This document shows, piece by piece, positions 18,702 to 52,401 of a DNA stretch of 64,000 bases. The notes under the pieces were generated by a model. It was not told where the DNA came from. It saw only the letters and a program-made list of their open reading frames with translations, and made no database searches. Source of the stretch: a virus. Position 1 is the stretch's first letter, and each line of letters begins with the position of its first letter. Position numbers and translations under genes: made by a program. The stretch is from positions 32,001 through 96,000 of the IMG/VR virus record IMGVR_UViG_3300025093_000011. One strand, given 5' to 3'.

Positions 18702-18737
18702 AGGTTTAAACAATAAATTAAAATTTAGTATATTATA
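18692..18737 (+). promoter_or_regulatory. Palindrome TAAAC-N7-GTTTA plus TATATT box (candidate operator/promoter), copy 1
   Basis: TAAACCTT-A-AAGGTTTA inverted repeat at 18692-18708, with TATATT starting 20 nt later (18729). Same geometry at 26196-26238. Confidence 0.55.
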
Positions 18738-18753
18738 TATAACTATTTAAATT

Positions 18754-29513: not shown

Positions 29514-32500
29514 ATGGCTGAAGAATTAGAAAATCAGAATATGCAAGATGTTGCTAATGAGCAAATGAATCAACAAATGATGTCTCAGCAAGATCAAGCA
29601 AATCAACAAGAGCAATCTGTTGAGCAAAAGGTATTTAATCTTGACAATACTCAAAACGAACCTGTAGATCCAAATGTAACATCAACACTTGGTGCAGCAC
29701 AATTAATGAATAATTTAAATACTTCATTTCCAGCTTTACCTGTAGATAATAAATTTGATATACCAGCTCCTCAAGTACAAGAAAATGTTGTAGGTCTTCC
29801 TGATCAACCTCCTGGACCTTATGCTGTTAAAACTCAAGGGGATGCTTTAGTACAGATGCTTCGTGATCAAAGTGAACGTACAAGTAGAACAGAAAACAAA
29901 GATTTTGGAATGTTCTATAATTATGACAATGGTCCTGATGGAAATGCTTTTTATAAAAGGTATGCTGCATTAGTTGGTACTTCTGATTCTTTGTTTGGAG
30001 GAAAAACTTTTGATAATAAAACATTTGATCAAATAGGGTTTTCTCCATTAAGAAATAATGAAGCTAACTTTAATGCACATACTACAGGATGGAATGACTG
30101 GGGTAGAATGTATAGACATTCATTTCCTGTTTTATTTAAAAGAGGTTTTGTAGATGGACCTAAAAGTATGATAAAAGCATTTAGTGGAGATTTTAGAGGT
30201 GCTGATCTTGCTGATGCAAAAGAGTATGAAGAAGCCGCAGCTATAGGAATGTCAAGTAAAGATGGTGTTGGCCCATGGTTTAATAATACTGTAATGAACT
30301 TTGGTTATACTGCAGGTATAATTTTGGAAGCCATAGCAGAAGAATTTGCTCTGAGTGCTATGACTCTTGGTTCTGGAGGACTAGGAGCTGGAGTACAAGC
30401 ATCAAGAACTGCTCAACTTATAAAAGGTATTGGAAAAGGTCTTGGTAAATTTGGATCTGGTGGTAAAGCTGTGAAAGATTTATTAAAAGCAACTAGTACC
30501 GTACCTGGTGCAAGAGGTTTATTTAATGGAGTTAAAAAAACTGGAAAGTTTTTCAACCCTTTAGAAAATACTACAAGTACTATATCTGCTTTATATAAAG
30601 GTTCTAATGGTGGAAAGTATGTAACAGGAATAGCAGCGATGTCAAAAACTGCAGGTGCTTTATATAGAGATATGAGAGCATTGAACATGGCTGTATCTGA
30701 GTCTAGATTAGAAGCAGGAATGGTTGAGAACAAAGTGTTTGATAAACTTTATAAAAAGCACTACAAAGATTTTGGAGTTAGACCTACTGCAAAACAGCAA
30801 GCTGATATGAGAGAGCAAGCTAAAGTAGCTTCTTTATCTACATTTAACTCTAATGCTCCTATAATATATTTAACTAATAGATTAACTTTTAGAAACGTGG
30901 TATCTCCTAAAGGAGGTTTAAGAAATTTTATAAAAAATACAAGAGAAGATATTTATAAAATTGGTGCTACTGCAGGTGAAAGAAATTTTGGAACTTTAGG
31001 TAAAGTTATTTATAACAATAGTAAAAAAGCTTTTGAGTTTGAAGCTAATAACTTAAAAGGTTTAGCTAAAAGTTGGTGGAAAAATCCAGGTTATAAAACA
31101 GCTGCTAAAACATTAGGCTATTTTAAATCTAATTTCTCAGAAGGATTTCAAGAAAACTTTCAAGAAATAGTAGCACGGTCTACTGAAAAATATTACACTG
31201 AGGCATTTGAAACAAATGTTGTTTCTTCAAGTTTGTATGCTAATGCAGTAAATGACATGACATTTAAAATACAAACAGGAAGTGTACCAACAAATGTTTA
31301 TAGAGATGAAATTAAGAATGAACTTAGTGCTGAAGGATTTAAAACCTTTGCTTCAGGTTTTGCAATGGGTATGTTCTCAGCACCTTTAAATCAAGCAATA
31401 CCTTTTTTAAGTACTCAGTATAATAGAATATATCATAAAGATGAATATGTTAAATGGAAAAGAGATAAATTAAAAATTACTAAAGAGTTAGCTAAAGACT
31501 TAAATAATATAAATACAGGAGATCTTTTAAATCAGAGATTAATGAATGTTGGCATGCAAGATATAATAGCTGACATTTATAAAAATGGTAGCAAAAAAGA
31601 AGCTCTTGATGCAGAATTAGAAGGTTTTGTTAAAACTGTTTCTGTAATGAGTAAGACAGGAACGTTTGGTGTCTTCATTGATAAGTTGGAAGAAATGAAA
31701 ACTCAAACAGATGAAGAATTAATAGATGATGTTGGTTCATCTGATATTAAAGAAGCTCCAAAGTATAGAGAAAGAATTGATAGAACTATTGCTAGGTTAA
31801 AGTCTATTGATGAAAATCTTAAAACTGCTAGAGAAAAATTAGAAAATCCTGTAACAGATGAAATGATAGAAACTGCTGCTGATAATAAAGAGAAAGAATC
31901 TCTTAAAACATTACAATCAGCTTGGAATAAATCTGTAACAAATTTTGTTTTCTTTAATGAAAGTTTTAAGGATACATTACAAAGAATGAATTCTATTCAA
32001 ACCAACTATTTAAAAGGTGATCTTTTATCAGATGTTGATTATGCTGCTTCTAAAGTAATATTTGAACCAACCAAAAGAATTAAAGGTCAGATAAATATTT
32101 TAAAATCAGAAATAGAAATAGAAGAAAATAAAGATGACACTAATAAAACAAAAGTAAGAGACCTTAAAAATCAAATTAAATATTTAGAGGAGTATGAAAA
32201 AGCTTACACTGAATTTAATAAGTTTTATAATAGAGGTCCACTTGTTGCAGCTGCAGTTAAGTCTTTAAAAGAATCTGGAGTAAAAGAACCTACTGAAGAG
32301 CAAATTGAAAAAGAAGTAAATAAGAAAGTAGGGAAGATAGATGATGAAAAGAAACAAGTTTTAATTTTAGGAAATCTTAAAAAAGCACATGATGAATATA
32401 TAAAATCTCTTGCAACAGATGCTGCTGTTCCAATGCTTCAAGAAAATTTAGATAAAGCTTTTAATGAACTTCTTGATTTCTATAAGCTTGGAGAAGAGTC

Positions 32501-35500
32501 ATCAATGATGGCTAACTATATAAATATTCTACATGATCCAGGAGAGTTTTTAAAACTTGTAACTGAAACTCAAAAAGCTCAAGAAGAAGCTCAAGCTAAA
32601 ATGGAAAGTCTTATAAAAAACTTAATTGATAAACAAGTAAAAAATGTAGAGCATAATCAATTATTAAATACTTTAGCAAGCCATGCTCCTCCACTATTTT
32701 TTGCAGAAGGTCAGTTTATTGACTTTTATAATAATGGTATTGAGCCAACTCATTTCTTAGGTATTGATGGTGAAAGATATGAAAAAGGATCTCCTGAATA
32801 TGGTTCAGGATTAGCTCTAGTTAAAAAACAATTAGAGCTTAACAAGATTAAATTATCAAATGTAGATACTGCAAAAAATATTGAGATGACTCCTGAGATG
32901 AAAAAGTCTGTAGAAATGATCAAAGCAGTATTTGCTGATTCTATGGATATAATATCAAGCCAAGGAGTCTATAAGTTCCAAGGTGTTGACTTTGAAAGAG
33001 TTTCTAATATAGTTAATAGTATATATGGTGATTATGGTTATCAAGATATAAATAATAGATTATTTGGTGTAGAGTTTAATGAGAGTTTTAGTGATCCTGT
33101 ATTTAATGAAAAATTACAAAGACAGGTAAATAGAGTAGATGAGTCTGGTAATGAAATATTTAACTTTAATGAAGCTACTATAAACTCTTACATAGATAAG
33201 CTTGCTGCAGCTAACTTACCTGGATTTAATACAGCAACAATAAATAATTTAAGATCAGAGCTTTTAAGTTTAGCAGAAGGTAATATTTTAAATTCAAATC
33301 AAAAAGAAATTGATAAGCTTACTAAGCTGAAAGAAAATGAACAGTCTCAGTTTAGAAAAGAAAATTTAGATAGAGAGATTAAAAAATTGCAAGAAGAGTC
33401 TACTATAACTGAAGATTTAAATTTAGAACGTGTAAAACAAGTCATAACAGATATAATTCCAAGAATTACTTATGAGTCTGGTAGACAAAGAGGGGATACT
33501 CTGGATGCTTTGGTTAGAGACTTTTTTGATGCTAGTATTACAGATTTTACTTATGACTCAACTAAAATTACTAAAGAAGCTTTTGAAACATTGTTTGGTG
33601 AAAACGGTTTTTTAACTAAATTAAAAGAAGCTGAGTCTAGAGGTGATATTTATGTATTCTCAAAAAATTTAACATTAGCAGATAATAATTTATCAGATAA
33701 AGATGGTAATTTATTGCCACCTGCTGCAGGTTCTTTAGATTTAGTTATTGTAGATAAGAGTGGTAAAGTTTATATTGCTGATTTAAAAACGGGTTCATTA
33801 AATAAATGGAATAGTTATCAGGTAGCATCACCGGGAACTAAACAACAATATAATTATAAAAAGTATTTCCAAAATAGTATGCAGCAAAGAGCATATGCAA
33901 ATCTTCTTTACAATAAAAGTAACGGAATGATTGATGCTGAAACTTTAATACTTCCTGTACAAACTAAAGAAGATCCTGAAACTGGTAAAGTTACATTAGC
34001 TAGCAAACCTGAACAAGGTGACTTAGTAGCAATTCCTGAAATTCTTGAAGAGGAAATGTTTATTTATGCTGATAAAGATCTTAAATATATAGACGAAGAT
34101 AATAATCTTTACATGGTTCTTCAGATTGATAAGAAAATACCTAGAATAGATAAAGGTACTGATCAAAAAGAAATGAATGATGAAGAGGTTTTAAATGATG
34201 CTATAAAAGAACTACAGTCTGAATTAGAAGAATTAAGAAAAGATGAAACTCCTTCACAAAAAAGAATTAATGAAGTAGAGTTAGAACTTAAGCAAACTAG
34301 AAGTATACTTGCAGAATCAAAATTAACACCTGAACAAAAAGCAAAAAGAGACGCTGATGCTGAACGTACTGCTTATAACAAAGCTGTAACTAAAAGAAAA
34401 AATAAAGCCTTTAAAGAAATAAAAGAAACTAAATTAATTATAAGTGATAGAAATTCTTCAGGTTACAAAACTACTTATACAGATAGTAATGGTGAAGTTT
34501 ATATTTTAAATGAAATCATTCTTCCTCAAAAAGATAAAGAAACCGGAAAATATAAACCTATTACTGAAGCAGATAAACAACGTGCTTATAAAAAAATACA
34601 AAGAAGAATATTAAATTTAGCTGACTTTGATAAGAGTGATTATAAAAGACAAGCTAAAGTAGACAATACTATTGATAATATTACAGGTAGAACTTTTCCA
34701 TTCTTTGTTGGTAAAGATGCATTAGGAAATCCTTATGAACACAACCTTACAGTACTCAGTGTTTATGTAATGGATGATGGTAACTATAGAATAAGAGCTA
34801 AAAATAATGTTAACCAGAATGGTTATGATATGGTTGTTACACCTGACGGTGATGTTGTAAAACATTTTAGAGAAGGTAGATTTAGTCCATCTGAAAATGA
34901 AATAATTTTTAGTGCTGATAGTTTTGCTAGACAAAAAACTGAAGCTGAAAAAGAAGAAGAAAAAGATTCTGTTACAGATAAGAGAGCTGACATAGAAAAA
35001 AGAAGAGAAATAAGTTTAATAGTAGTAGATCAGCTTTCAGAGGAAGAAGTTAAAGAATTAGATAAATACGATGAAATTGAAGCAGCAATGCCTATAGCTG
35101 GAGATTCTGAAACTGGTTATGAAGCTTACTATTACCCAAATATTAATGAAGAAGTTTATTCAACTGATGACCTTAGTGAAGAAGATAGTAAAGATATAAA
35201 CAAAGTAAAAGCTTGGGTAAACGCTAAATATGATGCAGAATTAGCTGCTTTAGAAGCTAAAGGCAAACCTGTTGCTGAACCAGAATCTTATAAAAATGCT
35301 GTTGAAGAATACAAAAAAACAGATTTAGGAGGTGGTACAGAAGCACAAATAGCAAAAGATAATCTTATAAAAGAAGCTAAAACTAAAGAAGGAAAAGCTT
35401 TTGTAGAAGATCAAGTTGATAGATTAGAAAAAAATGATGATGGTACTATTACAGTTTATAGAGCTGGAACTATACAGGAGGGTAATATTCCTGTAACAAC

Positions 35501-36464
35501 AAGTAAACAAACTGCAGAACTTATAGCTGAAGAAAGAAAAGGACAAGGATTAAGTTCAGAAATTCAAGAGTTTAAGGTTATGCCGAGTGATGTTGCAGCA
35601 GTAGTTCCAGGAATAGAATCTGAACTTTTAATAAATATTAATACTGGTAATATTAATAGAATTTCAAATACCGCTAATAAACAAGAGAAAGCTTTAGAAG
35701 AACTTCTAAGTGAAAAAGAACAAATTCAAAATGAGCTTTCTAAAGTAGAAGCTGATTTAGCAAAAACTAAAAAAGATAAAAGTGAAGGAACTTTTCCTTT
35801 TGCAGATAGCATATATAACAAAGCTGTAAAAGACAAGACTACTAAAATTAAAAATTTAAAATATCAAATAGTAAAGCTTGATAAACAAATAGCTGCTTTA
35901 GATAAAAATAAAATAGATTCTACTGACTATGTTGCAAGTATTGAAAACATGCAAGATACTGGAGTCTATGATAATTTATTTGATACCTATCAGGCACTAG
36001 ATAGAGATAAAGTAAACTTAAAACCATCTGAGTATAATATGTATAAATCTCAACTTGATGATTTAGCTACTTTAGCATTTAATCTAACAGAGTCTGAAAA
36101 AATTGATAGCTTTAAAAAGTATGATGTGGTAAATGTTCTTCAAGATAAAAATGGTAAACCTTATTTATCAAGTGGTGATCAGTTTAGAGTTGTTAATGCA
36201 AATGTAAAAGACAATACTATAACTGTTAAGAAAGCAGGTAAAGGAAATAATAAAACAAAAACTATAACTCTTGATGGTTATAAGAAAGCTATTCAAGTTT
36301 CTGATCCAGGAACTGGAGATAGAAGTTCATCTGAAATAGATAATAATAAAGAATCTAAAACAAAGTTTGAAGATTATATAGCAGATAAAGAAAATTTAGA
36401 TAAATTAGATGGTCAGAATAATCAGCCTGAAGATTATAATGATGACAGTATTTTTAAATGTTAG
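29514..36464 (+). CDS. Giant ejection protein with PD-(D/E)XK nuclease-like and putative ADP-ribosyltransferase-like domains
   Basis: 2316 aa with Gly/Ala-rich amphipathic N-terminal helices. 'GSLDLVIVDKSGKVYIADLKTG...Q.RAYANLL' at 33726-33910 and 'TITVYRAG...VTTSKQTA...GIESELL' at 35436-35640. The only Cys is the last residue. Confidence 0.65.
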   Translation: MAEELENQNMQDVANEQMNQQMMSQQDQANQQEQSVEQKVFNLDNTQNEPVDPNVTSTLGAAQLMNNLNTSFPALPVDNKFDIPAPQVQENVVGLPDQPPGPYAVKTQGDALVQMLRDQSERTSRTENKDFGMFYNYDNGPDGNAFYKRYAALVGTSDSLFGGKTFDNKTFDQIGFSPLRNNEANFNAHTTGWNDWGRMYRHSFPVLFKRGFVDGPKSMIKAFSGDFRGADLADAKEYEEAAAIGMSSKDGVGPWFNNTVMNFGYTAGIILEAIAEEFALSAMTLGSGGLGAGVQASRTAQLIKGIGKGLGKFGSGGKAVKDLLKATSTVPGARGLFNGVKKTGKFFNPLENTTSTISALYKGSNGGKYVTGIAAMSKTAGALYRDMRALNMAVSESRLEAGMVENKVFDKLYKKHYKDFGVRPTAKQQADMREQAKVASLSTFNSNAPIIYLTNRLTFRNVVSPKGGLRNFIKNTREDIYKIGATAGERNFGTLGKVIYNNSKKAFEFEANNLKGLAKSWWKNPGYKTAAKTLGYFKSNFSEGFQENFQEIVARSTEKYYTEAFETNVVSSSLYANAVNDMTFKIQTGSVPTNVYRDEIKNELSAEGFKTFASGFAMGMFSAPLNQAIPFLSTQYNRIYHKDEYVKWKRDKLKITKELAKDLNNINTGDLLNQRLMNVGMQDIIADIYKNGSKKEALDAELEGFVKTVSVMSKTGTFGVFIDKLEEMKTQTDEELIDDVGSSDIKEAPKYRERIDRTIARLKSIDENLKTAREKLENPVTDEMIETAADNKEKESLKTLQSAWNKSVTNFVFFNESFKDTLQRMNSIQTNYLKGDLLSDVDYAASKVIFEPTKRIKGQINILKSEIEIEENKDDTNKTKVRDLKNQIKYLEEYEKAYTEFNKFYNRGPLVAAAVKSLKESGVKEPTEEQIEKEVNKKVGKIDDEKKQVLILGNLKKAHDEYIKSLATDAAVPMLQENLDKAFNELLDFYKLGEESSMMANYINILHDPGEFLKLVTETQKAQEEAQAKMESLIKNLIDKQVKNVEHNQLLNTLASHAPPLFFAEGQFIDFYNNGIEPTHFLGIDGERYEKGSPEYGSGLALVKKQLELNKIKLSNVDTAKNIEMTPEMKKSVEMIKAVFADSMDIISSQGVYKFQGVDFERVSNIVNSIYGDYGYQDINNRLFGVEFNESFSDPVFNEKLQRQVNRVDESGNEIFNFNEATINSYIDKLAAANLPGFNTATINNLRSELLSLAEGNILNSNQKEIDKLTKLKENEQSQFRKENLDREIKKLQEESTITEDLNLERVKQVITDIIPRITYESGRQRGDTLDALVRDFFDASITDFTYDSTKITKEAFETLFGENGFLTKLKEAESRGDIYVFSKNLTLADNNLSDKDGNLLPPAAGSLDLVIVDKSGKVYIADLKTGSLNKWNSYQVASPGTKQQYNYKKYFQNSMQQRAYANLLYNKSNGMIDAETLILPVQTKEDPETGKVTLASKPEQGDLVAIPEILEEEMFIYADKDLKYIDEDNNLYMVLQIDKKIPRIDKGTDQKEMNDEEVLNDAIKELQSELEELRKDETPSQKRINEVELELKQTRSILAESKLTPEQKAKRDADAERTAYNKAVTKRKNKAFKEIKETKLIISDRNSSGYKTTYTDSNGEVYILNEIILPQKDKETGKYKPITEADKQRAYKKIQRRILNLADFDKSDYKRQAKVDNTIDNITGRTFPFFVGKDALGNPYEHNLTVLSVYVMDDGNYRIRAKNNVNQNGYDMVVTPDGDVVKHFREGRFSPSENEIIFSADSFARQKTEAEKEEEKDSVTDKRADIEKRREISLIVVDQLSEEEVKELDKYDEIEAAMPIAGDSETGYEAYYYPNINEEVYSTDDLSEEDSKDINKVKAWVNAKYDAELAALEAKGKPVAEPESYKNAVEEYKKTDLGGGTEAQIAKDNLIKEAKTKEGKAFVEDQVDRLEKNDDGTITVYRAGTIQEGNIPVTTSKQTAELIAEERKGQGLSSEIQEFKVMPSDVAAVVPGIESELLININTGNINRISNTANKQEKALEELLSEKEQIQNELSKVEADLAKTKKDKSEGTFPFADSIYNKAVKDKTTKIKNLKYQIVKLDKQIAALDKNKIDSTDYVASIENMQDTGVYDNLFDTYQALDRDKVNLKPSEYNMYKSQLDDLATLAFNLTESEKIDSFKKYDVVNVLQDKNGKPYLSSGDQFRVVNANVKDNTITVKKAGKGNNKTKTITLDGYKKAIQVSDPGTGDRSSSEIDNNKESKTKFEDYIADKENLDKLDGQNNQPEDYNDDSIFKC

Positions 36465-36477
36465 TAAATAAAAGGTA

Positions 36478-39400
36478 ATGATAAAGTGTACACTTGGACA
36501 ACCACAATTTGATTGGCTTTACGGTTCTACTAAAGCTGCAATAAAAGCTGAATTAGATAATGGTAAGTCTTTTAATGTTAGTTCATATATGGATTTCTTA
36601 TATGAAAGAATTAAAAAGGCTGAAGATGCTGATAGAGCTGCTCAATTTTTAGCAGTTACTCCTGATATATTAGACCTTGTTATATCTAGAAATTATGCAG
36701 ATAATATTGATAATATAACTGGAGTAGAGCAGTTAACTAAGTTAAGAGCTAAGTTCTCTAATCCTGAAAGTAACATTGATAATGTAATTGAATTTTTTGA
36801 AAAAGATAATAAAGTTAATTTAGAAATAAATAAACAAAATAAAATCAATACTAAAGGAGCTACAGTAAATAAAGTTGATACTAAATATAAATCAGGTGGT
36901 CCAAGACTTTTAGCTAATACAATTTTATCTGCAACTTTTCCTGAGTATAAATCTGAAGGAGGAAAGTTTGATCCAGAAACTATTAATCCTGAAAGAAATC
37001 TTATAAATAAAACATTAAGTAAGATAGCTGAGTCAATTGATTTACAAAGTTCTCTTTTGCAGTTTCCTGAATATCAAGGTAAGAAGATTGCACTTAGAGC
37101 AGTTAACATGTCTAGTTTTACTTATGGTGGTACAGCAGAAGGTAGAACTAACTTTAGTAAATTAGATTCTACTACACAAGATGAGATCATGAGATCTAGA
37201 AAATTATCTAGTGCTGCTATAGCTAAATCTGATGTGACTCAAGTTAACAAAAGAGCTTTAATTGTAGTCATTGATGCAGAGACTGGTAAACCTTTGTCAT
37301 TTAATTTTAATGGAGATATTGTTGATTCTAAAGATATAAATGGAAAATATGTTTTTCAGTTTATGAGAGACATACAAAAAGTTGGAAATACTTATACTGT
37401 AAAAGATATTTATGGTATAGAAGATAGAGTTGATACATCAAACGTTGACCAAAAAGACCTTGAAGATGCTTATAAGTTAAAACAAAAAGCTTTAAGAGGT
37501 GATGGTGTAGTTCTAAACTTTTTAGGAATGACAGAAGGTGTAGATTCACAACTTACTAAAAAAGAGTTTAGTCTTAAAGAGCTTATGGATCAAGGACAGA
37601 TAAAGGAAAAAGACTTAAGTACTTTAAAAGTTTTACCTAAAGATTCTTTTGGTTTTAAAGCTGGATCAACTGTTATAAAAATTAACGGTACTTATTATAA
37701 GTTAAAAGGAAATAGAGTAACACCTGTAGTAGATCAAATTATAGATGTGCTCTTTTCTAAAAAGGTTGGAAGAAAACAGAAGATTGAATTCTATTCTCAG
37801 TTTATTCCGGAAAATAATAAACATAGATTAACTTATACAGCAAGGAGACATGTTATAACACCACTGAAAAACGGTAGAATAGCAATACAAATATTTGATA
37901 AAGTTGCTAAAACAGAAGAAGGTTGGCCGACTGTTGATGGTAAAACAGAAGGTTTAACACATACTTTCTTTATTGCTGAAAACGGAGATGTAATTGATAA
38001 AACTCCTATGGGTGAAGTTGTAGTTACTAATCCTGAATCAGTAGAAGAACTAAAAAATATATTTAGAGATGCATTAAATAATGCTTATGCTCCACCAAAA
38101 GGAGGTGCTAGTTTTATGCATTATGATACAGATCTTATAGAGAGACCTAATGACTTTTTAGAATATAGAGATGGAAAATTCCCATCTAGAAACTATATAG
38201 ATTTTTTAATGTCTCAACCTTCTATAGTAGAAATACAAGCTTCACAAAAAGGTTTCTTTAATAAGCAAATACTATTTGAAGAATCAAATAAAGAAGTTAA
38301 AAAGGAAGATCCTAATGCAGATCTTATGGGTCCTAAAAGAACTTTAAGTGCAGAAGAATTAGCATTGATTGACCTTTCTGAAAATTTAGAAAAGTATAGA
38401 AAACTTTTACCAAAACAAACTACAGAAAACTATGCTGTTCTTTCATATATTTTAGATCAAGTAACTGGAAATAGATATAGTGAACAACTTGCTAGAGATG
38501 TATTTGATCTTTATAATGGGCCTTTACAAAATACTTTTACTAGTGCACAAGTAAAAGAATTTAATAGAAAGTTAAATAGTTTATTCCCACCTATTACACC
38601 TGAGCAAAATAAAAAAGATATTGAAGATAATCAGGATGATATAAGTGGTCAAACATCTTTAGATCTTGATTTAGATAGATCTGGAAACTTAACTTCAGAT
38701 ACTATTTCAAAAGAAGATTTAAAGAATGCAAATGACTTTTGGAAGAATAGTAAATTAGGTAAAAAGTTAAGTAAATATATTGAGCTTAACCGTGCTGCAA
38801 ATATTGCAAACTCTGATGCATATGCAAAGTTCATTATTGATGGAGCACAATTATTAAATCCAGATGTCTTAGGTAGAATAGACATAAATAAAGCTAAGGG
38901 AACTTTAGTAGATGTGTATCATGAAGCTTTTCATGGATTTACACAGCTGTTTTTATCTAAACAAGAAAAGATTGATTTATATAATGCTGTTTTAAATTAT
39001 AAAGATAAGTCTGGAAGAAAGCCTTATGAAAATATGAGTGAGTTAGAAATTGAAGAATTTCTTGCAGAAGACTTCAGAACTTACATGAAAGGTAACTATA
39101 AAAGAAAAAGCACTTTAATAAATAGAATTTTTAGAAGAATCTTAAATATTTTAAAAGCTATATTTGGTGTAAAAAGTAAACCAGTTGTATCTAGCTTAAA
39201 GGTTGATGCAATGGCTATACCTGCTGTAAATGAACTTTATACAAAACTTAATTTTTCTGAAAAGTATCCTGGCTTTTTAAATAAGTATAAAGCTAGTATA
39301 GATAATGTTATGTTTTATCAACTAGACCGTGGTGTTACTGCTGTTGATAAATTAAAGAATGAAAAATATAGAAGAACTGTATTATCTAAACAAGATTCTG

Positions 39401-45400: not shown

Positions 45401-48066
45401 AAAAATTTAAGAAAAGAGTTACTGATGTATATGGTACAAGAAAAGAAGATGTAGATAGATTTATTTCAAACTTTAATAATGCTATAGTAGATTACATTTA
45501 TCAAAATACAATGTCAGGAATGCCTGATACTGTAGGATTACCTCAAACTATTCCTAATGAAAATCCTTATAACCTACCTGTTGAGTCTGCAGAATTAAGT
45601 TATGAAAAACCTGTTGAATTTACAGATAGTAAAATTAAAGTAGACTTTAAAAAGATTGATGCAATTTTTAAAACTAAAAGATATCTATCAAATAATAAAA
45701 GCAGTACATCTTTTGCTGAATTAGGTTTGGATACATTTAAACAGAATGAAGATCCTTTTACAAATAAAGATTCTTTTGTAAAATATTTAATTGAGAAAGA
45801 ATCTTTGTATAATCAATATGATGTAAAGGATTTTAAAAATAAAACTGAATATGAACAATTTATTTCTAAAAGAGCTTTATTAAATAACTTTAATCATAAA
45901 TACATAATGGGTAGAACTAAGTATTCTTATACTCAAGATGTTGTAAAGATGATACAGTCTAATAAATTACTTATGGAAAGATATCCTGTATTAAAACAAT
46001 TGAATAGTTCATTCTTTATGAAAGGTGTTGGATATAATCTATTAGAATTAAGAGATAAAGGTATAATTGATTCAAGTACTTCAAACTTATACAGCAAACA
46101 GTTAACTCAACTTGGAGATGTGACAGTTAAGAAAGTAAAAGATAAAGCTAAAAATAAAGAGATTAGTGATATATTTAAAAACTTTTTCTTAATAACCCTA
46201 TATCAGCATGGTATTGGAAGAGGTATTATAAACTTTCCACAGATACAGAATCCAGAAACTTTTATGGAAATTATGAGTAATACTACTAATTCTTTCTTAA
46301 ATAAGACTCTTGAATCTAAAGGTAGTGGTGAGATTTTCAACTTTATTACCAATAGACTTTTAGCTCCTAATGTTTATAAGAACTATGTTCAAAGTGCTAA
46401 TGCATTTAATGGTACAAATATAGAAACTGACTCAATTCCTACAGAGGATTCTCAGTTACAAAAGTTAGAAGAAGATATTACACTCATAGAGTTTGGTATT
46501 TCTATAGGGGCTGCTACTGAAGCTGAGTTAAATGCAGCTAGGGAAAGACTTAATAAGTATTTGGATCAAAATAAACCTAAACGTCCTAATAACTTAAATG
46601 TTAAAAAAGGTAGTGGAGTTAAAATTATATCTGAACCTTATGGAGTGGCAGTTATTGAAACAAATCCAACAAAAACATTACAGTCTAAGTTTTTAGATCT
46701 TATTAAACCTCAAATAAAAGCTCAAGCTATAAAAGAGAATAAAGGTAGAAATGCTAACTTGATGTTCCAATTTGGATTAAGATGGGCTAGAGTAGAACTT
46801 TCTGCTCAACCTTTAGAAATTAATTCTCCATCATATGATTCTAATGCTAGAAAGAAAGAGATTGCAGCACTAGAAAAATCTAATAAAGATAAAACTGATA
46901 AGTTTGTGTATGCATATCATCAACTAGATCAGAATGGAACTCTATTACCGGAACTATCAGAACTACAACCTATAATAGATGATATACAAAAATCTTTAGG
47001 AATAGATATGTCTAATTATGATGCAATGATTGGTAACATATATTTACCAGGACAAGCTGTAGCTACACATAAAGATGTTACTGAAAGTAAATCTGCAGAA
47101 AATTATCCTGTAATAGTATATACACTTGGTGCAGGAAATGCAATAAACATTTATGAAAATGTTAAAGATCCAGGTAAAGCATCATTCGCATCTGATAAAA
47201 AAGTTACTATACCAACTAAAGCAGGTACTATATATACATTTGGTTTAGAAGGAAAAGGTAGATTTGAATTAGCACATGATACACCAAGAGCTATACAGAA
47301 AGGTGAAGCATTAGAACCTATCACTCTTCCTGATGGTAAAGTAGTAAAAGATTATACTATTACACTTACTTTTAGAAGAGCAGCTGATTTAGATCCAGGA
47401 ATGCCTAAGACACCTAAATCATTAATATCTACTCCAACTGAAGAAGTTGAAGAAGTAGATATACAACCTATTGATATATCATCTAATAGTAGAGGTCTTG
47501 GAGGTGCTCTTACTAACCCTACAGAATTATCTAAATCAAAAGGTAATATTGCTATGTCATATCCTGTTGAAGTTAGAGGTAAAAAATATCAAGATGCTGA
47601 GGCAGCATACCAAGCTTTAAAAGATAAAAAAGAGAGTACTACTAAACCTTCTAAAGATAAAAGTAGTAACTTTGCATTGATGACAGAAATATTAACTAAT
47701 AAACTAGATACTTATCCAAATCTATTTTCAGAGATTCAAAACAGAGGAGGTCTAGCATTTCTTAATGTATCAGTTCATCAACCTACTAATAAGAACACTG
47801 TATGGGAAAGTGGAGGTCAGAATTGGTTTATAGAATCTTTGGCTGAAGCCTTTGTTGCAACTCAAGCAACATATAACTTGCAATCTATACAAGGTAGTTT
47901 ATTTATTGATCCTTCAATATCTAATTATTATAATAGCTTAAGTAAGAAAGAAAAAGAAGATCTTGAATTAAGATATGGAAATGAACAGTTTGCTCAAGCT
48001 CAATGGGATAGTGCTCCTGCAAGTTTCACAATGGAACAATTTATTGAAATATTAAAATGTAAGTAA
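36478..48066 (+). CDS. Virion-packaged DNA-dependent RNA polymerase (crAss-like, double-psi barrel) fused to zincin, AlkB-like 2OG-Fe(II) dioxygenase and NADAR-like domains
   Basis: Catalytic 'GSDFDVD' at 43801-43821, preceded by 'GPRIP' and 'VVVPTEIVAK'. HEAFH at 38920-38934 with downstream 'EEFLAEDF'. 'NIYLPGQAVATHKD...HDTP...ITLTFRR' (~47030-47380). 'LTNP...YPVEVRGKKYQDAEAAYQALK...GQNW' (~47490-47840). Confidence 0.85.
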   Translation: MIKCTLGQPQFDWLYGSTKAAIKAELDNGKSFNVSSYMDFLYERIKKAEDADRAAQFLAVTPDILDLVISRNYADNIDNITGVEQLTKLRAKFSNPESNIDNVIEFFEKDNKVNLEINKQNKINTKGATVNKVDTKYKSGGPRLLANTILSATFPEYKSEGGKFDPETINPERNLINKTLSKIAESIDLQSSLLQFPEYQGKKIALRAVNMSSFTYGGTAEGRTNFSKLDSTTQDEIMRSRKLSSAAIAKSDVTQVNKRALIVVIDAETGKPLSFNFNGDIVDSKDINGKYVFQFMRDIQKVGNTYTVKDIYGIEDRVDTSNVDQKDLEDAYKLKQKALRGDGVVLNFLGMTEGVDSQLTKKEFSLKELMDQGQIKEKDLSTLKVLPKDSFGFKAGSTVIKINGTYYKLKGNRVTPVVDQIIDVLFSKKVGRKQKIEFYSQFIPENNKHRLTYTARRHVITPLKNGRIAIQIFDKVAKTEEGWPTVDGKTEGLTHTFFIAENGDVIDKTPMGEVVVTNPESVEELKNIFRDALNNAYAPPKGGASFMHYDTDLIERPNDFLEYRDGKFPSRNYIDFLMSQPSIVEIQASQKGFFNKQILFEESNKEVKKEDPNADLMGPKRTLSAEELALIDLSENLEKYRKLLPKQTTENYAVLSYILDQVTGNRYSEQLARDVFDLYNGPLQNTFTSAQVKEFNRKLNSLFPPITPEQNKKDIEDNQDDISGQTSLDLDLDRSGNLTSDTISKEDLKNANDFWKNSKLGKKLSKYIELNRAANIANSDAYAKFIIDGAQLLNPDVLGRIDINKAKGTLVDVYHEAFHGFTQLFLSKQEKIDLYNAVLNYKDKSGRKPYENMSELEIEEFLAEDFRTYMKGNYKRKSTLINRIFRRILNILKAIFGVKSKPVVSSLKVDAMAIPAVNELYTKLNFSEKYPGFLNKYKASIDNVMFYQLDRGVTAVDKLKNEKYRRTVLSKQDSDFMSSNIDSIISEEIDKFYDVKVGKSTNSELIAKYKGANISALLKPGNRAQIYKEVLKRLKDTLAELTDKHSTSENTISKIEDFEGIETAAVATLVVNEDDSTKDPNKYFFLSSQIDSFDNLTPNMKRGDRIKGETWQGVKIVGDYYVHNTIKDGSNRKAEIIVISELEDAEIQFDNYIKAGAKKYERVDVKEATEPELTIEDENVLNNMRLLETSIKNFGDPFYESKGGKPTGLIKYHLQNSDFEFGKVKYVVEEEVNEKGDELGESDSPVSEGLESMDPEYYDNKKSLYDLADSEVIYLLKGLFKVDSNGKPIKNSLGFNEREDFRSTWNLVSKSIGGIQDRQKAFDILKEEAELFPALKQLVDYKLPGPEGIKNTYAFDISSSFWHTFARPSAKFWQVSVIEGEPVLQESSPAAAKVLTNFKSYFKSFPNPYVKDQTLNLEKLVKSFSNNNGEINSKDFKSFLNALGIILDNTKKINTAIDNSDVQINKLFDLVKDIETISQKETLSKNEKILVSRFTQDPITTLQTLEWSKFMYLLPSFKTVQILAPVSTINLFANLQSKYGFDSPVENIILPDGNKAFAVTNHSSVSSMVDGINNLDELDNAWADTNSHMSFLDPSKNFFTNRSKLIASIFDPVTGKKIKGRELNFLAFAGLEVVDEMVAQGINTPDLVPIDKFYLAYNTMMQKGIGEFIRHAEKRMAFGIAPNEKSQVILDNGLKSGTDGLWISKDLFQNELEVSEGELMAIEGYLLDYIGVEFDRISFFKKNPEVLKNTIGFNRDVRGTKAGLTFGLTDDLLTKDIKKTLTGLAETLDENEDIVEYIKADSKLYDEISKSITNYFNQVAEETYKNYVSKIKSIPQDMVSVKAFVYNDYINKFEMFNLIHGDAVQFNHSKEQATKRAPGSTSNGDSFVYDEYAQDFINQVFQGENVNTYAKELSKELDDETIQDFNFDGTLNTGVIKDPKRKTVYMDELVEGWTEAYEKAGLTPQEIKYRLEKDRDPYEGIEEADGAAFATLDAYRMLKKLGGPNEWTSEQENLYQQVIKGEDTDPLKVKEAFPVYKLHYYGPLMNSEINTTLMYKFAVAPIIPTIAKSDTELYKLQKYMIENNFQMITMSTGSKVSTLTMNGEFDDIYLPSDNDYFKDKYINPNAKLANNKIHIRYLKNVTKVASKLKKTITKPTQERIMTISGLFKEGEINDKHREFYNEYKNAVDALTDAYEQEFLDEIGYEFKDGKYVGKLDNLIRVIRDELELKDVPVQLRAALDVDLNEQLSKDFSLHPEAGLVEKIVINRIAKALVRQKVKGEKDIQVPSTFYNGLWSSEYEQDPKIINDPKEIKKFLGSNNLPSYRRGDILKGKNGKILKDKDGYPLREKTKLAKIAVSINHGDFINLLNLEYKGKKIGTRQNLNKLIKDDKFLEEHGDKVRITGPRIPVDDLNLKDGFEVWHFLDASSANTVVVPTEIVAKEGSDFDVDALFLSFPTINKDGSFPIKVDFKKEYAKLKAENKSTKALIENQIGYAQNELIRTELNILTLADNYANLTKPNATYLISDEAEGFYKEYAQEFDPLANKNTTERYVSPTTVTNINYDVNKFAQLLGGAKPLGMLAKKKKQHVLYKYAGMAMPGQILIDDDVSYNYVPNFKFEYQKTSDGRISFSHENSVTNQDISTTFSHSFQGVLDRGNNPFPAYVNFTKDSLPVFNRMLESGIDKSIALALINQPIIKRFLNDLNETKGIVAVLNGQQSTKGEVLENILLGLSDNLRAIVYNAVDVANENRLDKILDSNEVSALDGKFSVKYLDGYTEQTEWKTYKTLKGLKTFIKKNSDNSYELVINESKLGNKTRVYQEKGLRFFAWSPNELADVLWKDSYGSNAPTVEELQNNISKLEPIASQKYLMDQAALLLYFLQIQNLSSDFEQFEIDFNPDTSILDTMASLDIYERNLNRLLKDPFSKLDTAGANRLMKESVLSSMNKYEIYKDIVIPLFPLRLNSRINFFLVNSLLDKKFKKRVTDVYGTRKEDVDRFISNFNNAIVDYIYQNTMSGMPDTVGLPQTIPNENPYNLPVESAELSYEKPVEFTDSKIKVDFKKIDAIFKTKRYLSNNKSSTSFAELGLDTFKQNEDPFTNKDSFVKYLIEKESLYNQYDVKDFKNKTEYEQFISKRALLNNFNHKYIMGRTKYSYTQDVVKMIQSNKLLMERYPVLKQLNSSFFMKGVGYNLLELRDKGIIDSSTSNLYSKQLTQLGDVTVKKVKDKAKNKEISDIFKNFFLITLYQHGIGRGIINFPQIQNPETFMEIMSNTTNSFLNKTLESKGSGEIFNFITNRLLAPNVYKNYVQSANAFNGTNIETDSIPTEDSQLQKLEEDITLIEFGISIGAATEAELNAARERLNKYLDQNKPKRPNNLNVKKGSGVKIISEPYGVAVIETNPTKTLQSKFLDLIKPQIKAQAIKENKGRNANLMFQFGLRWARVELSAQPLEINSPSYDSNARKKEIAALEKSNKDKTDKFVYAYHQLDQNGTLLPELSELQPIIDDIQKSLGIDMSNYDAMIGNIYLPGQAVATHKDVTESKSAENYPVIVYTLGAGNAINIYENVKDPGKASFASDKKVTIPTKAGTIYTFGLEGKGRFELAHDTPRAIQKGEALEPITLPDGKVVKDYTITLTFRRAADLDPGMPKTPKSLISTPTEEVEEVDIQPIDISSNSRGLGGALTNPTELSKSKGNIAMSYPVEVRGKKYQDAEAAYQALKDKKESTTKPSKDKSSNFALMTEILTNKLDTYPNLFSEIQNRGGLAFLNVSVHQPTNKNTVWESGGQNWFIESLAEAFVATQATYNLQSIQGSLFIDPSISNYYNSLSKKEKEDLELRYGNEQFAQAQWDSAPASFTMEQFIEILKCK

Positions 48067-48938
48067 TGGCTTGTATAAATAAATCAAATAAAACATATCA
48101 AAATATAGAGAAACGTTATGGTGTATTCTTAGCTGAAGTCTATACAAGAAGTCATCCTAAGAATCTTTCTATGAAAGCTAATGATGATTTTTATATTCCT
48201 TCATTAAGTGAGGTATCTAAAATTGTTAAAGCTGAAGGTATTGATACTATAGAAAACTTTGATGCAAATATGAAACAAAATCCTTATATGACTGAAGAGT
48301 TTATAAGGGATTCATTAAAAGGAGTTATTAGAAAGCATAGAGGTGAATACTATGTAATTAAAGGTATAGATGTAGGACCTTTGCAAACAGCAATCTCTAT
48401 AAAAGAAATCTTTGAAAAAAATTATAGAGTAATGAATACTCTACAATCAAAGTATCCTCAAATAATATCTTTAAGACAAGGACGTAAGCCAAGAAGTTTT
48501 AAAGTTATTATAACTCCTCAGCAAAAACCTGAAGAGGTTGAAGAAAGAACTATAGAACCTAGCTTAAGAGCATATGCTAGATTAGTAGAGCTTAATGATG
48601 GAGCACAACCCAAGATGTTTCAGAGTGGTCCGCATAGATGGCAAAGAGTCGGAAATAATCTATATACTCTTATAGATGAAGACACTGGAGCTGTGTTTAT
48701 GCCAAATGTTAATTTAGTAACAGGGATGCAAGAAGTTGAATCAAATACAACTCCTGTAAATCCTGAATATAAAAAGTATGTACTAAACCAAGTTAAACCA
48801 CTTAATACATCAGCTATGCAAGTATACTTAGCTGAAAGGGGTTATAATATGAATTTAATTATAAAAAACTTAGAATCTGCAGAAACTCAAGAAGAACTTC
48901 TTAGAGTATATAAAGATTTTGTTAAAACTGTATGTTGA
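48066..48938 (+). CDS. Small cargo-cluster protein with N- and C-terminal Cys (putative linker in the chain)
   Basis: 290 aa with a TAATG overlap to the RNAP gene. Starts MACINK and ends KTVC; no other Cys. Confidence 0.7.
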   Translation: MACINKSNKTYQNIEKRYGVFLAEVYTRSHPKNLSMKANDDFYIPSLSEVSKIVKAEGIDTIENFDANMKQNPYMTEEFIRDSLKGVIRKHRGEYYVIKGIDVGPLQTAISIKEIFEKNYRVMNTLQSKYPQIISLRQGRKPRSFKVIITPQQKPEEVEERTIEPSLRAYARLVELNDGAQPKMFQSGPHRWQRVGNNLYTLIDEDTGAVFMPNVNLVTGMQEVESNTTPVNPEYKKYVLNQVKPLNTSAMQVYLAERGYNMNLIIKNLESAETQEELLRVYKDFVKTVC

Positions 48939-48939
48939 T

Positions 48940-51900
48940 ATGGCAACTTGTCCTAATAAAAATAGTAAAGAATGGAAAGAGATTCTTTCAGAAGCACAAA
49001 ACAATGAACAAATTGCAATGGATCTTTGGATTAAAAAAGGATTCAATCAGCAAGAGGATTTAAACGAAGATGCTAAAGAGGGAGATCTAACTAATGAGGA
49101 AATAGAAGCACTGCAAGAGCTTGATCCTATGCAAAGATTAGCTCAAAAGACTAAAGTATATCTTCAAAAAAGAATTAATATTCTTTCAAATCAGAAAGTT
49201 AAAGACGTAGATAGAAAAACAAATAGGCTCAAAGAACTTTTACAAAACATGAAAGCTGTAGAGGAAGTTGAGTCAATAAATCTATTTATCGAAGAAGCAT
49301 ATAAAATGTCTCAACAGTTAAAGCAAAGAACAAAACAATTTTTGATTGATGTAAAGAAAGAGGATGTTGATAGAAAAGAACTTATAGAAGCTTTAACTAA
49401 TATAAACGAGTATGCAAACAGTTATAATATATTAGATGAGATATCTAGTGAAGATCTTTTTGATTTCTTTCAGTTAGACGAAGACGCTGAACAAAAAATG
49501 TTTGAAGAAGATGAAGAAGGGAATGTGAAATTAAGTATGAAAGAAAAACTAGAAAGAGCAGTAACTACTAGAAATATCATACGACAAAGAATGCTGGATG
49601 AAGGCATACCTTTATTAGCAGAGTTTTTATTAGATGCAAGATCAAAATACAGTGCTGAAGGTTTAGAAAAAGAAATTGCAGCAAAACGAGCAGAGATTGA
49701 AAAAATAAAGAATGATGTAACTAATGAAAAAAGAAGAGATAGACTTATTCAAAAAGTAGAAAGACAAATAGATCTTTTAAGCACGAAGGCTCAAGATAAA
49801 GATGGTATGATTAAGATACTAAAAGAAGCTGCTATAGAAGAAGGAGTCTTAGACTTTTTAGTAGGGCCATTAATTAGTTCACCTGATAGTGCTGTTGCAT
49901 TATTTGCTAAAGCAATTAAAGATCAGTTAGAGTTTGCTAGATTAAAAGATATTAATATTAAAAGAGAATTGACTGACGAATATTTAGAATACAGAAGTCA
50001 AGCTCCGGGATCAACTGACAATCCTCAAAAATTTAATGAAGGTTTATATACTGTAGTAGAAGTACCTGTATATGAAACGGTGCAATCAAAAAAGAATCCT
50101 AACTATTATTATAAGACGGTTAAGAAAGATGAGGCTGGTAATATAGTATATAAGAAAGAGGTACACTTTGTTGAAAGAATAGATAGAAAGAAATTTAAAG
50201 CTGCACAAGCCCAATGGTGGGCTGAAAACCCTAAGCCGCATGCAGATAAAATACCTGAGCAATTAACATCATCAGAAAAACAAGATGTTAGAAATTGGGA
50301 AAATAAAAAGAAGCAATGGTATAAAGAAAACATGACAGAGAAATCTGCAGAAGCTATTAAAGCTATTGATGATAAGATGAAGAATGAAAGAGATGCAGAA
50401 ATCATTAGTAAAAAACAATACGCAAACTGGTTTAACAATGAAAGGTTTAAAGAGATACAAGAACCTTCTTCAAAGTATATAAGTGAGAAGTGGTTAGCAA
50501 TGTATAACAAAGATGGTAAGCCTAAGAATGCAATGGGAGAATATCACAAAGCACTTACCGATACTTACTACGGTGCTCAAGAGTTATTACCTGAATCACA
50601 ACGAACAGGTTCTAGAATACCATCTATTCCTAAGAAAGATTTAGAAAGGTTATTAGATGAAGGAATTAGTAATCTAGTAAAGACTAACATTAAAGAAACT
50701 ATTTCTATACAAGCTTATGATACAGAATACGGTGGCAACATTGCAACTTTGGGAGGGGAAGCTGTGAAGTTCTTACCTATATTCTTTACACAAAATATTG
50801 ATGAATCAGATATAAGCTATGATTTATTAAGTTCTGTTTTATTATTTAGTCAAATGGCAAATAAGTATGACGCACTGAATGAAGTTAATGGTGAGATATC
50901 TTTAATGAAACAAGTTATATCTAAAAGAGCTAATCCGAAATTTGATGAGGTATCTGGTAAGAAACAATTTGATGTAGTGGCTAAGAGATTTGGCCTTGAA
51001 GAATTTATTGTTAAGAGTGGAGAAAGTTTTACTAAAAAACATTTAGATGCATTTATTGATATGATTGTATATGGAGAGATGCAAAAGAAAGAAGTTCTCT
51101 TGGGTTTACAGTTTGATAAAATAACTAACACAATAACCGGATTTTCTGCACTAACATCTATTGCAGCTGATTTACTTAAAGGTGTGGCTAATAACTTACA
51201 AGGTAATATACAATTAATTATAGAAGCATCGGGAGCAGAATTCTTTAGTGCTGCTGACTTAGCAAAATCTAAAGTTCAGTTCATGGAGAATGTTGCGGGA
51301 ACATTAGGAGACTTTGGTAAACCTAGTCCTACAAGTTGGATGGGTAGACTTAATGAGTTATATGACCCTATACAAGGAGACTTTACTGATAAGTATGGAA
51401 GAATTGTTTCTGCAAGTGTAGCAAATAAACTATTTAGAACTAATACATTATTCTTTAATCAGTACTTTGGGGAATATGAAATACAAGTTTCAGGAATGCT
51501 AGCATTAATGAATGCTACAGAAGTTAGAGATAAGGAGAATGGTACTAATATAACTATGTATGAAGCACATAAGAAATATGGTCCTGATTCAGGTGATTTA
51601 AATGGGAAAGTTGAGTGGATTACTCAGGATAAAGATGGGAATAATGTTTATGAGGATTTTAATGAAAAGCATAGGAGATCTTTTCAAGATAGAGTTCATG
51701 CATTAAGTAAAAAAATGCATGGTATATACAATACCTTTGATAAAGGTACTGCACAAAAGCAATCTTTGGGCCGTCTAGCTTTGATGTATAGAAAGCATAT
51801 GTATCCTGGATTTAAAAGAAGATGGAAACAGTATTCTTGGGATGAGGAACTTGGTTCAGGGACTGAGGGTCACTATAGAACCTTTTGGAATACTTTTGTT

Positions 51901-52401
51901 AGAGATTTAAGAACTTATAAATTAAATGTTGCAAAAGAATGGAGTACATATACTCCTATGCAAAAAGCAAATATCAGAAGAACTCTTTCTGAGATAGGTG
52001 TGTTCTTAACAATTGTAGGTTTGATAGGTATTCTTTCAGCTATGGCTTCTGATGATGGAGAGGATAAAGAAAAGTATAAAGACAATTATCTTTATAACTT
52101 TCTTCTGTATGAAATGGTTAGGATGAGATCAGAGACAGCTCAGTATATTTCTCCTAAAGATATGTGGAGAACTATAAAATCACCTTCTGCAGCTTTAAGT
52201 ACCTTAAGTAGATTCATAAGATTTACAAATCAGATACTACCTTGGAATATTACAGAAGAGTATAAAAGAAAGTCAGGTATTTGGGAGAAAGGAGATAACA
52301 AAGCATGGGCATACTTTATTAAATTAATTGGTCTTCCTGGTTATAATATTAAACCACAAGATGCAGTTAAAGTTTATGAGAACTTATCTAGAGCAATTTA
52401 A
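48940..52401 (+). CDS. Large ejection protein with C-terminal hydrophobic helix
   Basis: ATG at 48940, 1 nt after the previous stop, gives MATCPNKNSKEW and is preferred over the track's TTG at 48919. Helical; 'IGVFLTIVGLIGILSAMA' is TM-like (51994-52047). 'RVH......HGIYN...LGRLALMYRK' resembles the last crAss-like cargo protein. Confidence 0.65.
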   Translation: MATCPNKNSKEWKEILSEAQNNEQIAMDLWIKKGFNQQEDLNEDAKEGDLTNEEIEALQELDPMQRLAQKTKVYLQKRINILSNQKVKDVDRKTNRLKELLQNMKAVEEVESINLFIEEAYKMSQQLKQRTKQFLIDVKKEDVDRKELIEALTNINEYANSYNILDEISSEDLFDFFQLDEDAEQKMFEEDEEGNVKLSMKEKLERAVTTRNIIRQRMLDEGIPLLAEFLLDARSKYSAEGLEKEIAAKRAEIEKIKNDVTNEKRRDRLIQKVERQIDLLSTKAQDKDGMIKILKEAAIEEGVLDFLVGPLISSPDSAVALFAKAIKDQLEFARLKDINIKRELTDEYLEYRSQAPGSTDNPQKFNEGLYTVVEVPVYETVQSKKNPNYYYKTVKKDEAGNIVYKKEVHFVERIDRKKFKAAQAQWWAENPKPHADKIPEQLTSSEKQDVRNWENKKKQWYKENMTEKSAEAIKAIDDKMKNERDAEIISKKQYANWFNNERFKEIQEPSSKYISEKWLAMYNKDGKPKNAMGEYHKALTDTYYGAQELLPESQRTGSRIPSIPKKDLERLLDEGISNLVKTNIKETISIQAYDTEYGGNIATLGGEAVKFLPIFFTQNIDESDISYDLLSSVLLFSQMANKYDALNEVNGEISLMKQVISKRANPKFDEVSGKKQFDVVAKRFGLEEFIVKSGESFTKKHLDAFIDMIVYGEMQKKEVLLGLQFDKITNTITGFSALTSIAADLLKGVANNLQGNIQLIIEASGAEFFSAADLAKSKVQFMENVAGTLGDFGKPSPTSWMGRLNELYDPIQGDFTDKYGRIVSASVANKLFRTNTLFFNQYFGEYEIQVSGMLALMNATEVRDKENGTNITMYEAHKKYGPDSGDLNGKVEWITQDKDGNNVYEDFNEKHRRSFQDRVHALSKKMHGIYNTFDKGTAQKQSLGRLALMYRKHMYPGFKRRWKQYSWDEELGSGTEGHYRTFWNTFVRDLRTYKLNVAKEWSTYTPMQKANIRRTLSEIGVFLTIVGLIGILSAMASDDGEDKEKYKDNYLYNFLLYEMVRMRSETAQYISPKDMWRTIKSPSAALSTLSRFIRFTNQILPWNITEEYKRKSGIWEKGDNKAWAYFIKLIGLPGYNIKPQDAVKVYENLSRAI

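Follow-up and report, generated by a model that had tools for sequence, protein, structure and literature searches.

The window analyzed here, 64,000 nucleotides (nt) corresponding to bases 32001–96000 of a 113-kb IMG/VR virus record (IMGVR_UViG_3300025093_000011, 98% complete), is the cargo and transcription block of a divergent crAss-like phage, and it raises the question of why four consecutive phage proteins should carry cysteine (Cys) at their ends and nowhere else. The four are encoded on the plus strand, as are their domains given below. Protein A (29514–36464; 2316 amino acids (aa), 261 kDa) opens the chain. It is followed by protein B, a virion-type crAss RNA polymerase (RNAP) protein (36478–48066; 3862 aa, 438 kDa), by protein L, a separable link module (48066–48938; 290 aa, 33.5 kDa), and by protein D, the last of the chain (48940–52401; 1153 aa, 133 kDa). 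Together they contain six Cys in 7621 aa (865 kDa), each at most four residues from a terminus. The sole Cys of A, Cys2316, is its last residue (..SIFKC before the stop codon; TGT at 36459–36461), and its N-terminus has none. B has only Cys4 (36487–36489) and Cys3861 (48058–48060, in the C-terminal ..ILKCK), L has Cys3 (48072–48074) and the C-terminal Cys290 (48933–48935), and D has Cys4 (48949–48951) as its only Cys, with none at its C-terminus. A Cys pair thus flanks all three junctions, and the outer ends of the chain are bare. If six Cys were placed uniformly on 7621 positions, the probability that all of them fall within four residues of a terminus would be (32/7621)^6 = 5.5e-15. An initial annotation of this DNA had described this arrangement, and its coordinates and residues, the flanking pairs with the bare outer ends, and the motif C-[IP]-N-K-[SN]-x-K-x-[YW]-xx-I common to the N-termini of L and D were all recovered exactly from the open reading frames (ORFs) of the window.

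The initial annotation had also cautioned that the neighboring cargo proteins are Cys-poor, and this is the case: only 8 Cys occur in the block of eight cargo proteins (14,030 aa), against about 221 expected at the rate of 1.57% found for the rest of the genome (Poisson P ~2e-82). A further concern was that the N-terminal Cys might lie upstream of the true start codons. B and L, however, begin at the first ATG, 2–3 codons past an in-frame stop, and the next Met follows only 27–38 residues further; residues 1–12 are kept at the protein level in relatives with 21–55% identity. From this start placement and conservation it follows that the N-terminal Cys are translated, and the starts hold, with the Cys inside the reading frames. 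All six Cys codons of the window are TGT and stand next to stop or start codons. At these sites the relatives use both TGT (61 codons) and TGC (27 codons), which points to selection on the residue.

B was identified as a crAss RNAP by its giant size, its catalytic DFDxD motif and its homology to gp66 of the marine crAss-like phage phi14:2 (blastp, 25% identity over 548 aa, E 1e-13). The motif, GSDFDVD (aa 2442–2448; 43801–43821), lies inside a conserved region, R2 (43618–43902), and the R2 profile matches gp66, crAss001 gp50, crAss002 gp33 and the ctbg_1 RNAP (E 1e-27 to 1e-32). A second conserved region, R1 (aa 732–909; 38671–39204), was assigned by profile search and alignment (A7) to a zincin-like HExxH...E domain, with H84, E85 and E129 invariant in the alignment and YHEAFH at 38917–38934. 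The R1 profile matches aa 2083–2242 of crAss001 gp47 with E 1.5e-40, and the zincin of the crAss transcription block is thus present here as well. R1 was also considered as the first barrel of the polymerase, which is ruled out, as the alignment shows a zincin HExxH domain. Near the C-terminus of B, aa 3444–3607 (46807–47298) scored weakly against the 2OG-Fe(II) oxygenase superfamily (PF13532), with E 1.3e-4 and 22.7 bits, which stays below the 31.2-bit cut-off.

D is the companion protein of the RNAP: its aa 496–1136 match crAss001 gp49 with E 2e-53 and phi14:2 gp65 with E 3e-42, and tblastn gave 24–27% identity (E 1e-37 to 1e-55) for the homology of its C-terminal 640 aa to these two. This conserved C-terminal domain spans 50437–52398. 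In a hydropathy scan, the only strongly hydrophobic segment of the whole chain was found there as well (D aa 1014–1039; 51979–52056). Other searches were negative. None of A, B, L and D reached the threshold for a family in PHROG and Pfam searches, a phmmer search with B gave no match among PDB sequences, and the AlphaFold2 model of L (pLDDT 83, pTM 0.40) had no PDB match by Foldseek at E <= 0.001. IMG/VR locus searches with L alone or with the query P0003 found nothing.

The genome context is of crAss type. Matches to terminase, portal and major head protein families of PHROG are found upstream of the block (genome G000), and replication genes (DNA polymerase, exonuclease, ATPase) follow downstream on the minus strand, where the DNA polymerase has its closest match in phi14:2 (33% identity). 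Mass spectrometry placed the homologues phi14:2 gp65–gp67 and crAss001 gp47, gp49 and gp50 in the virion, which they are presumed to leave in a partly unfolded state (PMC10172136). From these homologues we infer that A, B, L and D would likewise be packed in the virion and ejected.

Conservation of the terminal Cys across Crassvirales, on which the initial annotation had made its reading depend, was found in cultured phages as well as in IMG/VR loci. The relative G001 (38–55% protein identity) has the same Cys pattern residue for residue. The homologues of A in G001 (47% identity) and G003 have their sole Cys 0–1 residues from the end. Eight more complete IMG/VR chains (among G003–G010) repeat the pattern, and a ninth, G007, is a single Cys-free protein. 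In phi14:2, gp67 has only Cys1797, its last residue, gp66 has Cys3 and Cys2179, and gp65 has only Cys3. In crAss001, gp47 has only Cys2339 (..LRCNS), gp50 has Cys5 (MSKRC..) and Cys2404 (..DKICGANTLYEL) plus one internal Cys1334, and gp49 has only Cys5 (MAKKC..). Here the gp47 gene lies on the opposite strand and is not adjacent to those of gp50 and gp49; gene adjacency is hence not required. The phages crAss002, ctbg_1, cr4_1 and cr108_1 obey the same rule. The arrangement thus spans Crassvirales, in cultured or reference phages of three families and in about 120 IMG/VR contigs that were retrieved with search patterns containing no Cys. The Cys are also among the most constant residues of their proteins: M1, C3 and C290 belong to the eight invariant columns in an alignment of 14 L sequences (A5; 21–41% identity), and C4 is the sole invariant column among 36 D N-termini (A6).

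Two surveys were used to count junctions. The one centered on D used Cys-free patterns from the D C-terminal domain and yielded 45 loci, 44 with both Cys, one with neither and none with a Cys on one side only. The RNAP-centered survey started from the motif GSDFD[VIG]D[KAS] and covered the best 80 of 469 IMG/VR relatives, with unique junctions counted. Both Cys were present at 33 junctions between B and its upstream neighbor, neither at 9 and only one at 2; between B and its downstream neighbor, both were present at 54 junctions and only one at 3. The survey totals are thus 87 with both, 9 with neither and 5 exceptions, each of which could be explained. On the upstream side, a Cys lies 19 residues from the end in one case, and an unrelated ORF is inserted in the other. 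On the downstream side, one start is mis-called (internal ..KH-MASC), and in two cases B and D are separated by small inserted ORFs. No unexplained one-sided case hence remained in more than 100 junctions. Counted once each, 96 junctions hold both Cys and 9 hold neither. The surveyed B proteins contained 25 internal Cys in 273,362 aa. The gp055/gp056 junction of IAS virus adjoins N's in the assembly and was left out of the counts.

Several of the surveyed loci showed further features. The small ORFs that separate the RNAP protein from the D-type protein and account for apparent one-sided junctions are those of loci L130 and L146, and in L130 the following ORF resembles a GIY-YIG homing endonuclease (..YIIRNLVNGKRYIGST..). 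The annotated start of crAss002 gp33 (L086, NC_055828, locus 9270–22007) gives Cys35, with Met-Ser-Cys at residues 33–35; the terminal-Cys rule predicts a true start 32 codons downstream (MSCTPSNPK..). The cr108_1 RNAP gene (L090, NC_055878, locus 17122–17413) is broken within the catalytic motif (..AKAGSD, about 290 nt, LYDIDK..) by what looks like an intron, consistent with the intron-rich RNAP genes of crAss phages (Yutin et al. 2021). Orphan terminal Cys also occur. Proteins of 323 aa in G009 (oriented 4829–5800; L075/L076) and 268 aa in G010 (oriented 4329–5135; L079/L080) have their only Cys as last residue (..GGKKC), and in a 603-aa protein of G004 (oriented 30890–32701; L016–L018) the single Cys is residue 3 (MAC..). 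No partner is obvious for these proteins, so that more links, to other virion proteins, may exist.

If the Cys belong to the junctions, they should be gained and lost together as genes split and fuse, as the initial annotation had proposed. This was borne out by shifting breakpoints and by Cys-free fused forms. We took R1, the zincin, and R2, the catalytic region, as landmarks. The break between A and B falls 35–1088 aa before R1 in the window phage, G001, G003 and G008–G010. It lies 99 aa past R1 in crAss001 and 1168 aa past R1 in G004, and it is absent in G005, G006, cr4_1 and cr108_1, where both landmarks are on one protein. The distance between R1 and R2, summed across the break in crAss001, is 1528 aa and equals that within single chains (1472–1527 aa), so the pieces are collinear parts of one virtual polyprotein. 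Distant relatives were out of reach for profiles built on A and on the upstream 1080-aa protein; the fusion of A and B is therefore argued from the positions of R1 and R2 and not from homology of A. The Cys flank the break wherever it falls relative to these landmarks. If the break is missing, no Cys is found at the start of the protein or at the end of its upstream neighbor. Accordingly, A+B fusions are devoid of the N-terminal Cys, and the B+D fusions (crAss002 gp33, ctbg_1) keep only the N-terminal one of the terminal pair, with a C-terminal end free of Cys. No Cys is present in the 5005-aa all-in-one protein of locus L161, which includes R2 and the D domain. On the tree, the state of the A|B break changed at least three times, and both Cys shifted together in 3/3 changes (sign test p 0.25).

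The single Cys-free protein of G007 (IMGVR_UViG_3300045391_000819; loci L065, L072–L074 and L081–L085), a complete 131.7-kb genome, has 3143 aa and ends in the D domain. Among the ORFs of at least 300 aa in this genome no giant DFDxD protein was seen, and its virion RNAP may be absent or unrecognizable.

The 290-aa protein L had been proposed as an insertable link. Its separable nature was confirmed, with at least three changes of state on the tree. In relatives without L, the L profile matches the last 140–310 aa of B (e.g., G003 B 4063–4372, E 5.5e-31), and in L098, L139 and L153 it matches long D-type proteins at their N-terminus. L is hence a module that may be fused to B, free or fused to D. 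It carries a Cys at an end only where this end is a real terminus. That L would be an added adaptor, on the other hand, did not hold: in relatives that have no L, the RNAP protein carries a homologue of it as C-terminal domain, and L thus is a module that was split off.

Taken together, the sequence comparisons suggest that the thiols very likely act as pairs across the junctions. The flanking motifs follow the junction type: ..ILKxIC always faces MxxCPxK, on B or L alike, and ..LKCKL faces MSCINK. Pairings other than head to tail are conceivable, with B and L closing on themselves from N- to C-terminus while A pairs with D, or with each Cys forming homodimers. Self-closure also predicts equal numbers of N- and C-terminal Cys, and B and L do have one of each. 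Yet in systems of two proteins the A C-terminus and the B N-terminus (ctbg_1) or the B C-terminus and the D N-terminus (G005, cr4_1, cr108_1) are all there is, so that only one heterotypic head-to-tail pair is permitted, via the same homologous termini, which favors this pairing over self-closure. Homodimers need no joint presence of both sides and do not predict the joint presence or absence seen at the junctions; the head-to-tail chain is favored over them, too. As the flanking motifs moreover co-vary across junctions, alternative pairing appears quite improbable. Should the terminal Cys not be joined at all, they might serve as a packaging or portal-recognition tag, as a site of thiol modification or as a redox sensor on entry. 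A tag would fit the conserved residues after the N-terminal Cys (CPNK.S.EW, CINK), but it leaves the Cys-free outermost termini of the chain unexplained, as well as the Cys-free fully fused forms and the co-occurrence on both sides, and we consider it very improbable. Hardly credible is that the Cys are a by-product of gene splitting, left by a junction cassette or by nucleotide signals for translational coupling, with thiols that have no role. The uniform TGT codons beside stop and start codons in the window would agree with this. Relatives, however, use TGC in about 30% of cases, the intergenic layouts vary from overlap to 66 nt and include the non-adjacent opposite-strand genes of crAss001, and the Cys stay invariant at 13–46% identity against an almost total loss of Cys elsewhere.

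The functional head-to-tail thiol pairing is probably a disulfide, as judged from these comparisons. Alternatively, as the initial annotation had already suggested, a facing Cys pair could bind a metal ion, e.g., Zn or Cu(I), with carboxylate or water as additional ligands, and thereby clasp the termini; after all, the data show only that two thiols work as a pair, and acidic residues are frequent near the C-terminal Cys (..DTTSDC, ..DEDNC, ..EQDRC). We regard such a clasp as unlikely. No conserved His or second Cys is found near either terminus, one, two or three pairs per phage fit poorly to one four-ligand metal site, and the sole solved case of the signature, in cyanopodophage A4 (see below), is a disulfide. 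A single metal cluster of four Cys was rejected on the same grounds, as the phages have one, two or three pairs, and so was a split intein, as the Cys have no sequence of intein size next to them.

We hence propose that A, B, L and D would be pieces of one collinear virtual polyprotein that the lineages of Crassvirales have cut at different places. At each cut, the upstream C-terminal Cys and the downstream Cys at position 3–6 would, most likely, be joined within the particle by an interprotein disulfide, and with internal Cys purged, wrong pairs would be impossible. The product would be A-S-S-B-S-S-L-S-S-D, a linear 865-kDa chain (~0.87 MDa) with overhangs of at most four residues per joint, in which the bonds would keep stoichiometry and order during packaging. 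The partly unfolded proteins could then exit through the tail one after another, and host thiol reductases could afterward separate the pieces. We regard these threading and release steps, which extend the sequence pattern, as possible rather than probable. With similar reserve, we may speculate that the ejected crAss transcription machine as a whole is a re-joined polyprotein, with a terminal disulfide at each cut, a single-thread exit in fixed order and cytoplasmic reduction as release or activation switch for the RNAP, and that the same solution arose separately in A4.

Several points weigh against this proposal. The disulfide in crassvirus cargo is deduced from sequence, which alone does not separate it from a metal bridge between two thiols. 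The crAss001 cargo proteins gp47, gp49 and gp50 have no clear density in the reconstructions (PMC10172136). Assembly takes place in the reducing cytoplasm, so oxidation must be late or catalyzed, and many crassviruses live in the anoxic gut. Independent evolutionary events are few, and the sign test is underpowered. Some C-terminal Cys lie 8–19 residues from the end (crAss001 gp50, L107, L108), and gut lineages hold some internal Cys (6–10 in IAS, crAss002 and ctbg_1). Neutral in this respect is a complex prediction that paired L (alignment A5) with the N-terminal 150 aa of D (A6), which scored 0.00 without controls and counts neither way.

Upstream of the Cys-linked chain and outside of it lies a block of presumed cargo proteins that are Cys-poor as well (7678–29506, plus strand). 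Its proteins of 2590, 1084, 1655 and 1080 aa contain 2, 0, 0 and 0 Cys, i.e., 2 in 6409 aa. In the Cys-free 1084-aa protein (15447–18701), the N-terminal domain is endolysin-like (phrog_380, E 8e-7; phrog_15410, E 3e-9), as expected for an ejected cell-wall hydrolase. The block is interrupted by an 822-aa protein (23730–26198) that has 8 Cys and thus probably is not ejected cargo.

In the literature on phi14:2 gp66, on the crAss001 atlas, on crAss genomics and on N4 that we consulted, we found no mention of these terminal Cys. New from the window are the four-piece state and the identification of L as a movable module of the chain. How megadalton protein cargo of podoviruses is packed in defined amounts and passes a narrow tail is an open question according to the N4 and crAss001 structure papers (PMC13434306, PMC10172136). 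If our proposal is true, a chain of terminal disulfides would set order, stoichiometry and release by one simple rule. It would account for ejected proteins having almost no Cys, in N4 as well, and for the free drift of gene boundaries in the crAss transcription block, and it would tell correct start codons, as for crAss002 gp33. The phages concerned are those most abundant in the human gut.

Among known systems, coliphage N4, a member of the Schitoviridae, also packs a giant RNAP, gp50, in its capsid and ejects it, probably unfolded, through a narrow tail (PMC13434306). In its genome (L171, NC_008720), gp50, gp51 and gp52 (3500, 644 and 150 aa) have zero Cys, whereas the N4 DNA polymerase and primase have 1.1–1.4% Cys. 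The ejected N4 proteins thus resemble the interiors of A to D. They differ in that the N4 RNAP is of the single-chain T7-like type and has no terminal Cys, with no sign of covalent linkage among the ejected proteins. The absence of Cys in N4 seems to fit a general purge from proteins that pass narrow channels, against which the retained terminal pairs stand out. A looser parallel is provided by polyketide and non-ribosomal peptide synthases, where docking domains, short C- and N-terminal elements that co-vary as cognate pairs, order separately encoded giant proteins. These act non-covalently, do not come from viruses and have no sequence relationship, and we use them as an analogy only.

The closest likeness of the junction itself is found in cyanopodophage A4, the Anabaena phage A-4L. 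Cryo-electron microscopy showed the C-terminal helix of its gp27 docked in gp26, with a Cys1715–Cys5 disulfide (PNAS 2025, PMC12002296). In the A-4L genome, we found these to be the sole Cys of the 1717-aa gp27 and the 1114-aa gp26. Here, too, consecutive ejection proteins have a sole Cys, two residues from the C-terminus in gp27, facing Cys5 of gp26, and the neighboring A4 ejection proteins are Cys-poor. Cys2316 of A, Cys3861 of B and Cys290 of L take the place of the upstream Cys, and Cys4 of B, Cys3 of L and Cys4 of D that of the downstream Cys at position 3–6. In contrast to the window phage, A4 has one link and not three, and it has no RNAP. On the portal of this T7-like 42-kb phage, the linked proteins assemble into a pre-ejectosome that is folded and pentameric. 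The bond was treated there as a local stabilizer and was not generalized (PMC12002296). As phmmer gave no match at E <= 1 between A, B, L or D and A4 gp26/gp27, the resemblance is one of mechanism and not of family.

Within the crassviruses, the resolved disulfides of crAss001 include some in the tail and, at the portal vertex, in the gp57 dimer (PMC10172136). The phi14:2 gp67-66-65 and crAss001 gp47-50-49 proteins share with the window phage the DFDxD RNAP, the zincin, the gp49/gp65-type C-terminal domain and the same Cys rule. The window phage differs in its larger proteins, in L as a fourth, free module and in having the zincin inside the RNAP protein. Certain phages have the three proteins of the transcription block fused (Drobysheva et al.). 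The fused crAss forms, i.e., the 5005-aa protein of L161 and the B+D proteins crAss002 gp33 and ctbg_1, carry the same domains on a single polypeptide in unchanged order, with the continuity of a peptide bond in place of junction Cys. The window phage with its four pieces represents the most fragmented state of this series.

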